From the NCBI GenBank assembly GCA_038214755.1, contig JBBQRQ010000069.1, positions 1 to 26,812 of the forward strand: DNA of 26,812 bases. Reading direction: 5' to 3'. The notes beneath the pieces were generated by a model, which was not told the DNA's origin, made no database searches, and saw nothing but the letters and a program-made list of their open reading frames with translations. This document shows, piece by piece, positions 22,683 to 26,812 of this stretch (positions are counted from its first letter, which is position 1; each line of letters opens with the position of its first letter). The stretch is from Verrucomicrobiota bacterium (GTDB lineage: Bacteria > Verrucomicrobiota > Verrucomicrobiia > Limisphaerales > CANJXF01). The position numbers and the translations under genes were made by a program.

Positions 22683-23113
22683 TTATTTTGCCCGGATTAC
22701 TTCCCGTATTTCACTGGCTTGTCGTGCAGCGCCAGCAATGTGCTTCTGCTGAAAGTCCTCGAAGTGCGCACAAAGCATTTGCCGCACAACAATGCCTCCT
22801 TGGCTATGGCAGACGAAAATGATGCGGTCTTTCGCCAATGGCGCTGGAGGTTCTGTGGGAGTTCGCAAGTTGGCGAGAACTTCATCCGCAGCCGCCCGAA
22901 CGTCATAAAGTCCAGCGCCGATGCGACATAGCCAGCAGCAAATATGGCCGGGTCTTGAAATTGAGGGTCATCCTTCACCATCTCCGGCCAGTAGGTCTTG
23001 GCTTTCTTGTTGCGCCAACACGCGTCGCTGTCGGACAGAATCCCATGCACGAAGATGAACACTGTTCGTGACGTGCTCTTGTGAACCCAAGTGTTGTTGT
23101 TTACCGCAGACAT
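22683..23113 (-). pseudogene. Frameshifted, truncated alpha/beta-hydrolase (DUF676/PGAP1-like)
   Basis: MSAVNNN...IFVHGILS...W..YWP. A frameshift near 22920-22928 leads into IGAGLYDV...IIFVCHSQGGIVVR (nucleophile elbow). It ends after ~140 aa. Confidence 0.75.
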
Positions 23114-23124
23114 TCGCGTCTCCG

Positions 23125-23874
23125 TCACACCTTCGCATAAAGCTCGCTGCCCTCCTCGGTGAACTCGCGGGATTTTTCTTCCATTCCCTTTTTCAACGCC
23201 TCTTCTTCTGCGATGCCTTGTTCGGCGGCGTATTTGCGGACGTCCTCCGTTATCTTCATGCTGCAAAAGTGTGGCCCGCACATGGAGCAGAAGTGAGCCG
23301 TCTTCGCTCCCTCTTGCGGCAGCGTTTCATCATGGAATTCTCTGGCCATCACCGGATCAAGCGAGAGGTTGAACTGGTCTTCCCATCGGAACTCGAACCG
23401 GGCTTTCGATAGCGCGTTGTCGCGGTATTGAGCACCCGGATGTCCTTTCGCCAAGTCCGCCGCGTGCGCCGCAATTTTGTAGGCAATCACGCCGTCCTTA
23501 ACGTCTTTTTTATTGGGCAATCCCAAATGCTCTTTCGGGGTCACGTAGCAAAGCATCGCGCAGCCATACCAGCCGATCATCGCCGCGCCGATGCCGCTGG
23601 TGATGTGGTCGTAGCCGGGCGCGATGTCGGTGGTGAGCGGTCCGAGCGTGTAGAACGGCGCTTCGCCGCACCACTCGAGTTGCTTGGCCATGTTTTCCTC
23701 GATCATGTGCATGGGCACGTGACCCGGACCTTCGTTCATCACTTGCACGCCTTTGGCCCACGCGCGCTTGGTCAATTCGCCCTGCACTTCGAGTTCGCCG
23801 AATTGCGCCTGGTCGTTCGCATGGGCGATTGAACCGGGACGCAAGCCGTCGCCGATGCTGAAGGCCACGTCGTA
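23125..23874 (-). pseudogene. thiC: 5'-truncated second copy of thiC (3' ~750 bp)
   Basis: [14 protein letters not shown]...EGPGHVP...[11 protein letters not shown]...CSMCGPHFC. The upstream sequence is not thiC-like. Confidence 0.9.
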
Positions 23875-23986
23875 GCGATGATGATGTCGGTTCATTGGCC
23901 GGTGCGGCTCGCATTTCAATTTAACTTGGGCAAAACTTTTTAAATTCAACTCGCGTAATAATTTTTTACGAACTCGGTCAAATGTT

Positions 23987-24337
23987 TCAAGTTGGCACAA
24001 CAAGGTTCAATTTTGCCAACCGACTTCGGATAGCGCCTTCCTGTCTGTGCAAGATTTTTGCGATTTCTCTCACGCTTTTCCCGCTTCGGCAAAGTTCGGA
24101 AAGTTGTCCGTCTTCCTCATCGCTCCATTTCTCGTAGGCGCGGGGATGGTCATGGCGGATTTCCTCCACGTCGTAGCTCTTGCCTTCATTTGTCACCTGT
24201 CCAGCTTCGAGCGCTTCGGCTGCGGCCTGGAAGATGTCGTGGTAAGTCCATGCCAAGTCTTGCACGAGAATTTGCTCGTAAGTGTGACCTGTTGCGATGG
24301 CCTGTAGGATGGCGCGGGACTTTTCGCTTAGTGCCAT
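23987..24337 (-). CDS. Small protein with a DUF433-like N-terminal half and a C-terminal HTH (W..EED..L...GKS..EIA..L.R..GAIRSRL)
   Basis: ATG at 24337 with an AAGGAG RBS; 116 aa. Confidence 0.7.
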
Positions 24338-24496
24338 CTCAGGGTTCTCCTTTGAAGGCGTCGGCAACCAAGCCCGTGGCGAAGGTCGTCGCCGATGGAA
24401 AATAAAAAGTCGCAGGCGGCCATGATTTCGCAGATTTCGTTCACCGAAGCATCGTCTCAAAACCGACGATGGAAAGCAACGACCAAGAAGGAACAA

Positions 24497-24541
24497 TGCT
24501 CCCTATAAGCCGTGGAGCAAAAGCCCGTGTGCCGATAAGCT
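24497..24541 (+). promoter_or_regulatory. Candidate C-box/operator and leaderless promoter of the C-R operon
   Basis: TGCTCC-N11-GGAGCA inverted repeat, the direct repeats CCTATAAGC/CCGATAAGC, and a -10-like TAAGCT 7 nt before the GTG. Confidence 0.5.
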
Positions 24542-24548
24542 GCCCGCC

Positions 24549-24800
24549 GTGAAAAATCGGAAGCTTACTTTGCTGGGGCAGCAAATCCGCCGCCTGCGTG
24601 AGGAGAAGAATCTTTCGCAAGAGGAGTTTGCCGGCCTCGCTGACATTGACCGCGCCTATTTCGGAGGAATCGAACGAGGCGAAAGAAATGTTGCGACTCT
24701 CAACCTCATCAAGATTGCTGATGCGTTGAACATTGAAGTCGGAAAATTGTTCCCCACCCTCTCAGCACTTCGCCGCGCCGGAAAGGGAGGGTCTGAATGA
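24549..24800 (+). CDS. XRE-family HTH protein, probable R-M controller (C) protein
   Basis: LGQQIRRLREEKNLSQEEFAGLADIDRAYFGGIERGERNVATLNLIKIADAL. ATGA-coupled to the nuclease-like gene. Confidence 0.85.
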   Translation: MKNRKLTLLGQQIRRLREEKNLSQEEFAGLADIDRAYFGGIERGERNVATLNLIKIADALNIEVGKLFPTLSALRRAGKGGSE

Positions 24801-25351
24801 ACGGTGAAACGCTTCGGCTCGGAATCTTTGCGCTTCGGACACGCCGCTTCGGATCAGTTGCTGAATGCATGGTCGAGCGCCTTCAAAAATGCGGGAAAGC
24901 CAAAAATCTATTCCATGACCTCTTTCACGAAGACGATGGTGAAATTGAAGTGAAATTCTCGACGGTGCAGCAAAAGGCTAAACACACAGTCAGCCTTGAA
25001 ACGGTCCTTAAGTGCATTGAAGACGCGATTTCGGAGAGAGAACCTGTGCCGTTTTCCGCATGGCAGAACTACAAATTTGACTGCAACATTCAACAAGTGA
25101 AGCGACGGTTTTTCAAAGTTCTTTACTATGGTTTGTTTTTCTCCGATTGCGTGCAGATTTTCCGAATCAACATCTCTGAGATTAAGACACGCGTAGAAGG
25201 TGGCAACATCGGTTATTCAGACAAGCAACACAAAGGCAACGTTGGCGAAGGACAGTTCCATGTCACGGAGAAGAACATCCAGACTCATCTGGAAAAATAC
25301 CATCACAAGACCTTAACCTACGAAGACCTTTACAAACTTCTTGTCGGCTAA
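24797..25351 (+). CDS. Putative type II restriction endonuclease (PD-(D/E)XK-like)
   Basis: HD...EIEVK motif. It lies between the C gene and a convergent methyltransferase, in lower-GC sequence. Confidence 0.7.
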   Translation: MNGETLRLGIFALRTRRFGSVAECMVERLQKCGKAKNLFHDLFHEDDGEIEVKFSTVQQKAKHTVSLETVLKCIEDAISEREPVPFSAWQNYKFDCNIQQVKRRFFKVLYYGLFFSDCVQIFRINISEIKTRVEGGNIGYSDKQHKGNVGEGQFHVTEKNIQTHLEKYHHKTLTYEDLYKLLVG

Positions 25352-26385
25352 CCAAAGAGAACAGGCTGCCCTATATCTTCGTTTGAGGCATCGCCGATGG
25401 GATGAACAATTTCTTGTGGCTCTGGGTCGCCAACCAATCGTTTCAATTCATCGTCTTCCATGATTTCGACAGCGAAAGGATTGCTGTTTTGCCAGCCGGT
25501 TCTTCCCGTTGCCCGAAATAGTTCGAGCCGACGAATGGCTATCTCGCAGTAAACAGGGTCGATATCCATTGTTAAGCAACGCCGTCCCAGCATTTCGGCA
25601 GAAATTAAGGTCGCACCTGAGTGGCAAAAGAAATCAACAACTACGTCACTTTTGCATGAGCTTGCCTGAATAATGCGCTCACAAGATTTCAACGGTTTCT
25701 GCGCATAACACCCGTTGACATTCTCCACCATGCGATAGAACACCTGCTGAATATCAACCCAGACATTTCCAGCCCGGATATTCTCAGACTTGCTCCGCTG
25801 AAAGTTGTCCGTGACAACCCCGTTCACTTCTTTGTAGTAACCTCGCAAGATTTTCGGAATATCCGTGTATTCGGCCTCCACATTAAATTGCGGGTTACCA
25901 CGAGTGTAATAAAGCAGTTCCTGGCGCACAGCCATCCAGTTTTTCTGAGTTCCATATCCGCGCTGGTTTCGCATTGTGAGGAAGGAACGCGGCAGAAAAC
26001 CCGTGCTCCTCATCATGATCATGAAATCAGGCAGCGGCTGAAACCCTTCTCGTTGATCCGCACCCATCCAAACATACAGTGCGGCATCTTTTTCCAAAAT
26101 TGACTCGGTGTTAAGTATCCACTTGCGACACCACTCAATAAATTCGCCAATGCTCCGCTTTTCAAATGCGATGAGATTGTATGGTGGGTCATGCAAGGCG
26201 AGGCGTGCCTTTTGGCCTTGCGCTAGCTTTTGAACATCCTCACGAACACTTGCATCAAGGCAACCAATCCGGTGTTTGCCGGTTGGGTCTTCCCAAATGT
26301 CCCCACGACGAATCCGACAATGCTTTAGCAGAGCAGTTCGGAGTTCTGGCACATCATCAAGCCGTGGCAGAGGGTGATTTTGCAT
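25348..26385 (-). CDS. Beta-class amino (m6A/m4C) DNA methyltransferase
   Basis: DPPY precedes QKP...ERII..SS...VVDFFCHSGAT (variant SAM motif). Its stop codon overlaps the nuclease stop. Confidence 0.92.
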   Translation of the reverse strand: MQNHPLPRLDDVPELRTALLKHCRIRRGDIWEDPTGKHRIGCLDASVREDVQKLAQGQKARLALHDPPYNLIAFEKRSIGEFIEWCRKWILNTESILEKDAALYVWMGADQREGFQPLPDFMIMMRSTGFLPRSFLTMRNQRGYGTQKNWMAVRQELLYYTRGNPQFNVEAEYTDIPKILRGYYKEVNGVVTDNFQRSKSENIRAGNVWVDIQQVFYRMVENVNGCYAQKPLKSCERIIQASSCKSDVVVDFFCHSGATLISAEMLGRRCLTMDIDPVYCEIAIRRLELFRATGRTGWQNSNPFAVEIMEDDELKRLVGDPEPQEIVHPIGDASNEDIGQPVLFG

Positions 26386-26407
26386 AACAATTATTCTATT
26401 AACAGAC

Positions 26408-26812
26408 TCACGCCTTGGCGTAAAGCTCGCTGCCCTTTTCCGTGAACTCGCGGGACTTTTCTTCCATTCCTTTTTTCAAGGCCTCTTCTTCCGCGATTCC
26501 CTGTTCCGCCGCATACTTCCGCACGTCTTCCGTTATCTTCATGCTGCAAAAGTGTGGCCCGCACATGGAACAGAAATGAGCTGTCTTCGCTCCCTCTTGT
26601 GGCAGCGTTTCATCATGGAATTCTCTGGCCGTCACAGGATCAAGCGAAAGGTTGAACTGGTCTTCCCACCGGAACTCGAATCGGGCTTTTGAAAGCGCGT
26701 TGTCGCGGTATTGCGCGCCGGGATGGCCTTTCGCCAAGTCCGCTGCGTGGGCCGCGATTTTGTAGGCAATCACTCCATCCTTGACGTCCTTTTTGTTGGG
26801 CAATCCCAAATG
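26408..26812 (-). CDS. thiC: Phosphomethylpyrimidine synthase, 3' end (gene enters from the right edge)
   Basis: [34 protein letters not shown]...[16 protein letters not shown]. Confidence 0.95.

Follow-up and report, generated by a model that had tools for sequence, protein, structure and literature searches.

The window, a stretch of 26,812 nucleotides that makes up the entire contig C69 of a 5.1-Mb, 97% complete Verrucomicrobiota genome (G000) of the order Limisphaerales, carries near one end a restriction-modification (R-M) system enclosed by two 3' ends of the gene thiC. We read this locus as a single slot in a cassette array that host recombination assembled without an integrase, with thiC acting as a shared homology platform or hub, and we put the probability of this reading at roughly 0.62. 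The evidence comes from the two thiC copies themselves, from related genomes, from the pattern of variation within thiC, and from a short non-coding leader that lies between cargo and thiC fragment. The features of the locus are as follows.

26408..26812, minus strand: 3' end of the upstream thiC copy, codons ~522-655, reaching the contig edge
25348..26385, minus strand: N4/N6 DNA methyltransferase (MTase), 345 aa (PF01555, E 3e-27; PADLOC MTase_II), starting 22 bp past the thiC stop
24797..25351, plus strand: putative type II restriction endonuclease (REase), 184 aa (PADLOC REase_II, E 3.8e-6, a weak match), convergent with the MTase gene
24549..24800, plus strand: C (controller) protein, 83 aa (PADLOC Control_protein, E 1e-19), overlapping the REase start
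24373..24440, minus strand: decayed internal thiC stub, nucleotides ~1193-1259 (alignment; blastn, 78% identity, E 2e-7)
23987..24337, minus strand: small helix-turn-helix (HTH) gene, 116 aa, with weak HTH Pfam matches
23916..23982, minus strand: core of the non-coding leader (adapter), ~65 bp, after the cargo and before the anchor-gene fragment
23890..23915, minus strand: junction spacer with a small hairpin insert, read from the sequence; the insert occurs at the same spot in other leader copies
23125..23889, minus strand: thiC 3' fragment, 765 bp, nucleotides 1203-1968 of a congeneric reference, with an open frame and of mosaic origin
22683..23113, minus strand: frameshifted alpha/beta-hydrolase-like gene, older cargo, in two open reading frames (ORFs; DUF676, weak, E 0.005), 11 bp past the fragment stop
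about 22634-22663, no strand assigned: terminator-like hairpin at the array end, seen by eye

On the minus strand the thiC end is thus followed by the MTase gene, the REase and C genes on the opposite strand, the small HTH gene, the thiC fragment and the frameshifted hydrolase gene; sequence and ORFs bear out this order and both gaps as the preliminary description of the window gave them. Its assignment of the fragment to the 3' end of thiC also holds, with a measured length of 765 bp in place of 750 bp, and the hairpin that it took for a terminator is visible in the sequence but was not listed by a terminator scan. What it described as one captured cassette is at least two units, as the third, decayed thiC stub shows. 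The preliminary description had noted neither this stub nor the leader, which thiC, thrS and ilvD arrays have in common. The putative REase gave no match in the Pfam search. None of the five ORFs between and after the thiC copies matched an integrase or transposase family in Pfam and further profile searches, as had been claimed for the interval between the copies, and the five tyrosine-recombinase matches of the genome all lie on contigs other than C69.

Among the 405 bases that can be compared between the two thiC ends there are 42 differences, of which 39 are synonymous; the three others exchange T/M, K/E and A/V. Our recount agrees with the earlier one. With a dN/dS of 0.013 (Fisher p 4e-27 against neutrality), the two copies are alleles that were each once under selection, as had been proposed, and not a duplicate that drifted. 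Since the window is the whole of C69, the upstream copy runs off the contig; it is presumably the end of an intact thiC whose 5' part lies on contig C91. That contig ends in the 5' part of thiC (codons 1-352), and because the ~170 codons between C91 and C69 are unassembled, the intactness of the upstream copy is an inferred one. A thiamine pyrophosphate (TPP)-like riboswitch precedes the C91 thiC (Rfam, E 1.5e-9, slightly below the gathering score); at G000:C91 19173-19324 (L002:818-969) it appears to hold an insert resembling repetitive extragenic palindromes (REP). The GC content at third codon positions (GC3) climbs to 0.88-0.93 in the last ~330 bases of C91, which may mark a foreign tract or a mis-join.

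When the thiC regions of relatives were extracted, tandem thiC-tail arrays with variable defence cargo were found, as the preliminary description had anticipated. At least two thiC matches occur in 15 of the 34 other genomes of the order with any thiC match, a count that includes the unpublished G009 and some splits at contig breaks. The corresponding figure for the rest of the phylum is 7 of 179 genomes, at least four of these being full-length paralogues; the cut-offs for the two counts were unequal, the query favours close kin, and short stubs in distant groups are undercounted. An intact thiC followed by repeated units of cargo, leader and fragment was mapped in G033, G034, G123, G246, G069, G177, G274 and G059, the last being a two-contig genome; G361 also has a tandem array, and G005 has six units on a single contig. 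Congeners (one genome per species) carry different cargo behind thiC. The polarity that had been proposed, with the newest cassette first, survives as a tendency, the proximal stub being the longest in 10 of 14 arrays by hand count; in the window itself it fails, where the proximal stub is short and decayed. Many thiC tails were also seen in G012 and G013, in which this query found no intact thiC.

The cargo consists mostly of defence and addiction genes, namely R-M, toxin-antitoxin and other defence genes. A first set of 147 ORFs in or beside arrays, picked from 351 called ORFs and the locus map and searched against Pfam, contained by our own count 34 of R-M type and 12 of toxin-antitoxin type; a further 88 ORFs (49 of 85 from one ORF list and 39 from array maps) were similar in composition. 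PADLOC, applied to 35 cargo proteins, adds Septu-like, TIR-Argonaute, IetAS and candidate systems, and many cargo ORFs have no Pfam match. Among the thiC cassettes are a pair of TIR-domain and short Argonaute genes (L091:1093-3925, L143:4472-7331), Septu-like genes (L049, L088) and IetAS (L079). Tyrosine and serine recombinase families had no match among the 147 and 88 cargo ORFs; matches of mobile type were single only (IS3, IS5, Y1 and a group II reverse transcriptase), and tblastn probes with IntI and XerD gave zero matches in 193 partly overlapping loci totalling 1.17 Mb.

That homologous recombination inside thiC is involved, as had been suggested earlier, follows from the mosaic nature of the window fragment, whose nearest neighbours change block by block. 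Its synonymous differences from the intact thiC of G001, G031 and G033 amount to 0% over codons 480-504 but rise to 55-64% in the block that follows. We compared thiC with rpoB in 17 genomes that gave both genes (three genomes without an intact thiC in hand and G011, with a partial rpoB, were left out), which form 125 between-family pairs that are not independent of one another. Runs of at least 20 identical codons occur in 33 of the 125 thiC pairs and runs of at least 30 in 10, against 0 of 125 for rpoB. ThiC is a more conserved protein than the rpoB product, a difference controlled for by counting synonymous changes only: synonymous change stays at or below 5% in 45 of 1889 between-family blocks of thiC and in 0 of 4449 of rpoB. 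These sequence patterns point to a thiC that is mosaic across families through exchange between them.

The leader is present in at least 55 of the 401 genomes of the order by a profile hidden Markov model (HMM), or 54 of 400 without G009; this is a lower bound, two candidates having been scored per genome. An exact 25-mer from it recurs in 43 stretches of genome contigs, the loci apparently belonging to Verrucomicrobiota, several of them to Limisphaerales/Pedosphaera, and a 36-mer recurs in 51 metagenome stretches. The 25-mer had no match in viral contigs, and plasmid and phage searches were likewise without a match, which speaks against a phage or plasmid part. An anchor piece follows 87 of the 99 unique HMM matches (thiC 75, thrS 9, ilvD 3), by labels that rest on short motifs and are permissive, a stricter protein match assigning 63; in metagenomes, 33 of 40 copies directly precede a thiC, thrS or ilvD piece. 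The leader joins lie at thiC codons ~377, ~400-415, 458 and 494, thrS codon ~503 and ilvD codon ~388, and some of these junction classes may have arisen from others by deletion. The 55 leader copies compared have a mean identity of 84%. The HTH gene and leader of the window are 81-87% identical to those of thiC-415, thiC-458 and thrS units of other genomes, and the same modules of cargo plus leader precede different thiC, thrS and ilvD fragments, that is, different junction classes. An HTH-leader module common to thiC and thrS units indicates that cargo moves between anchors, and a crossover inside the leader would explain the sharing without new junctions.

Several other identities for the leader were considered and set aside. 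Stops and indels break its frames, so that it does not look like coding sequence, and the region has one sigma-70 promoter-like site against 2.4 expected by chance. An attC site or structured RNA likewise found no support, the bottom strand having no consensus fold, the top strand folding at -1.4 kcal/mol and the arrays searched giving no Rfam match. A native source was sought in the variant of one genus, which lies between convergent genes and was uninformative; this variant has no anchor fragment after it (L286:2969, L290:136, L292:2197), and two copies follow a large sensor kinase gene. The small hairpin insert of the window (23890-23913) recurs in or beside the leader and within thiC fragments (L083, L084, L123, L126, L127, L136, L138), and a second hairpin insert recurs in thiC fragments near codon 428.

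Arrays of this kind are not specific to thiC. The genes thrS and ilvD carry equivalent arrays behind them, and a self-comparison of the source genome, from which multi-copy matches and matches inside larger ORFs were removed, found 3' stubs downstream of their gene in 37 cases and upstream in 2, and 5' stubs upstream in 19 cases and downstream in 4; these counts include a few paralogue repeats. Such symmetry of 3' and 5' stubs across the genome makes gene-end duplication a general habit and not one of thiC. Judged from their sequences, the anchors include ilvD, thrS, parE, transketolase, purB, lysS, mutS, pheT and pepF. In 20-kb pieces, 34 of 1550 genes have a stub; three genomes that do not belong to the order gave 3 of 623 and G059 gave 2 of 201 (p 0.003), the control being small. 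Only 3 leader matches in the source genome are significant, and most of its stubs have no leader; their junctions displayed no motif and no shared dinucleotide. Junctions made by REP elements and their associated transposases (RAYT) were rejected: the genome does have 17 Y1 transposase matches, but stub junctions show no excess of repeats, which lie near 2 of 37 against 124 of 591 in the background.

Individual loci illustrate the range. Behind thrS (G000:C42 20415-39319, L267) five thrS pieces separate a TIR protein, a PIN gene and addiction-module pairs, and a sixth piece of 915 bp is inverted (38405-39319). Three ilvD tails lie behind ilvD (G000:C26 15400-24475, L266), with a leader variant before the first. 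A mirror array, with three 5' stubs upstream of an intact oligopeptidase F-like gene and PIN-type cargo, is found at G000:C73 7479-12120 (L271). Orphan thiC tails accompany a repeat protein at G000:C10 43100-46250 and an ATPase with an R-M-like pair at C45 4845-9445.

We propose that incoming DNA would recombine homologously within a conserved anchor gene and be joined to the resident gene at its other end by microhomology of a few bases, either by homology-facilitated illegitimate recombination (HFIR) or through a circle closed in that way and then inserted by a single crossover; the anchor gene would be kept intact and its old tail pushed downstream. A unit that ends in leader and thiC fragment would then carry homology at both ends, and ordinary crossovers that pair thiC with the fragment, on linear or circular DNA, could spread such units, stack them and mix thiC alleles across families. 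The leader, carried beside the fragment and partly constrained, may serve as a second portable homology adapter that shuffles cargo between arrays. Post-segregational killing is established for R-M and toxin-antitoxin families, and by analogy such cargo probably resists loss; the divergence of the copies, which the preliminary description named as a second possible brake on excision, may act likewise. The mosaic anchor and motif-free junctions fit one homologous and one microhomologous end. The circle of the preliminary description is not needed: a linear double crossover or one-sided recombination would lead to an equal layout, and the three routes are not told apart by the data. ComEC and DprA are present in the source genome, weak evidence given matches in 10-11 of 14 controls.

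Several points weigh against this proposal. Leader joins at six positions in three genes all fall within ~14 bases of the leader core, and leader substitutions are clumped (variance/mean 4.5), with 11 invariant columns against 2 expected, statistics that are overstated by the relatedness of the copies; a dedicated site would account for both joins and clumping better than passive carriage. The newest-first order of decay does not hold for 4 of the 14 arrays, nor for the window. Orphan thiC tails, whether away from the thiC locus (the source genome's C10 and C45) or in genomes where this query found no intact thiC (G012 and G013), need a second illegitimate event, and between-family homologous recombination at 10% divergence requires pre-existing identical tracts. 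The observations, moreover, come from contigs and include no circles, competence or transfer.

The leader's clustered joins raise the question of whether it marks the cis-acting end of a one-ended capture system, not described so far, whose trans-acting enzyme, a tyrosine recombinase or HUH protein, is encoded elsewhere. The leader 3' end would be joined to loose sites in conserved thiC, thrS and ilvD, the upstream DNA (cargo and anchor tail) would be circularised or inserted, and homologous recombination would rescue the other end, as for ISCR1. The placement of most leader copies in genomes and metagenomes directly before an anchor piece, by the permissive labels, its fixed orientation, its box-like conservation and the joins just past its core in all three genes agree with this idea. 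We nevertheless consider it, the main rival of our reading, unlikely. Candidate enzymes are not significantly associated with the leader: IntI occurs in 25 of 55 leader genomes and 111 of 346 others (p 0.065), and IS91-type Y2 transposases in 15 of 55 and 70 of 346 (p 0.29). Neither 30 IS91-type loci nor the five tyrosine-recombinase loci of the source genome have a leader beside them, the leader has no attC-like hairpin, several junction classes may derive by deletion from two ancestral joins, and most stubs of the source genome have no leader. Were it true, there would be an integron-like network in which defence cassettes pass from family to family within one order. Tandem islands that replace a gene end are well known, and the arrays might accordingly be integrative elements with an attB in thiC and a long replacement 3' end, inserted in tandem, with the integrase later lost and the leader as an old attP arm. 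Phased TTGA/RAGTT motifs in the leader resemble arm-type sites on inspection. This is very improbable, with zero integrase-bearing units in the 193 loci, four or more start points in thiC, besides those in thrS and ilvD, where a single attB would be expected, and the 5'-end mirror cases, the many other anchor genes and a leader unmatched in viral contigs, phages and plasmids all failing to fit.

An in-place tandem duplication of the thiC end with later drift, or an assembly chimera of two strains, the latter raised in the preliminary description, is largely refuted and can hardly be credited. It would draw on the assembly breaks inside thiC at C69 and C91, on the raised GC3 of the last C91 stretch and on the middle of the thiC fragment, which no single unitig bridges. 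The excess of synonymous changes argues against drift, and in Logan run X1 one unitig spans 23836-26447 with zero differences at depth 20.9, joining the upstream thiC end, the cargo, the leader and the fragment start, which argues against a chimera; a downstream unitig spans 21500-23203 at depth 23.8. Run X1 is probably the source sample and hence not independent evidence, and the small-share runs X2, X4 and X6, which matched mainly conserved parts of thiC, were not used. The layout also recurs in dozens of genomes, the two-contig G059 among them.

Taken alone, the event in the window is of a known kind, R-M insertion with long target duplication, described by Furuta, Abe and Kobayashi (2010, PMC2853133): R-M genes without other mobile genes lie between direct repeats of up to ~420 bp, which often cover the start or stop and thereby preserve an intact target gene; most of the species concerned are naturally competent. 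Here homologues of both R and M are present (the MTase strong, the REase weak, accompanied by a C protein and arranged as is usual), the insert of ~2.5 kb is below 20 kb and the direct repeat of at least 405 bp above 30 bp, and profile and tblastn searches found no other mobile-element genes in the insert. The cases of that paper used for this comparison are single within-species events with repeats mostly 90-100% identical, whereas here units are stacked in tandem behind a single housekeeping gene in many families, the fragments reach 765 bp, an adapter is shared and the cargo extends beyond R-M; further cases are given in the paper's supplements, perhaps with larger arrays among them. According to PMC5361080, the arrays of type VI secretion effector-immunity modules in V. 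cholerae, and Rhs and contact-dependent inhibition (CDI) orphans, arise by sequential displacement through HFIR. They place the new module in front, shift older ones downstream and later undergo ordinary recombination, as our arrays may do, and they likewise lack an integrase; their anchor, however, is the toxin locus itself, and here it is an unrelated housekeeping gene, with the entire old tail kept and exchange between families. Two looser analogues are unconventional circularizable structures (UCS) and ISCR1. The UCS of PMC8401462 likewise hold recombinase-less cargo between long direct repeats and target a conserved site, but they can excise as circles, which were not observed for the contigs analysed here, and they target conjugative elements and carry resistance genes. 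ISCR1 in complex class 1 integrons (PMC3575428) resembles our arrays in a one-ended element end beside cargo and in truncated duplicates of a conserved segment; it has a rolling-circle transposase inside the unit, whereas none was found in or linked to our arrays. A Y2 transposase was not found in the source genome, but the positive control of that search was also undetected. Integrons share polarised arrays of compact defence and toxin-antitoxin cassettes, yet our units are bounded by host-gene coding fragments, with no attC-like hairpin and no adjacent intI; the genome's own IntI is on another contig with no leader beside it, and the array loci have zero IntI matches. Nor do the units look like integrative elements, having neither an integrase nor one fixed attB. 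That IntI gene, above the TIGR02249 cut-off, lies near a contig end (G000:C31 46597-48622), and integron integrases of this kind occur in 136 of the 401 genomes of the order.

Elsewhere in the window, an ECF sigma factor, an anti-sigma-like gene and a membrane protein of 590 aa that has no Pfam match (19723-22514) are convergent with the array. A cobalamin riboswitch is found at 3396-3587 (RF00174, E 3e-16), and REP-like palindromes of several families at 14645-15074, 4977-5122, 5699-5770, 11175-11340 and 13004-13080.

In a literature whose subscription papers were mostly outside our coverage, we found no report of thiC-tail arrays, a thiC hub or the adapter; what is new here is the order-wide thiC hub, its between-family exchange and the shared adapter. 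Defence genes often cluster at core-gene hotspots without a mobility gene, and how they arrive is poorly understood. In the arrays described here one can read the scar of each insertion and trace between-family exchange through the anchor gene, and in dozens of genomes cassette ends can be recognised by the 65-bp adapter; together these features make integrase-free acquisition directly testable. Users of these genomes should be aware of the mosaic nature of thiC in this order and of the assembly breaks that fall at this gene. The adapter, for its part, offers a cheap probe for unannotated defence candidates.

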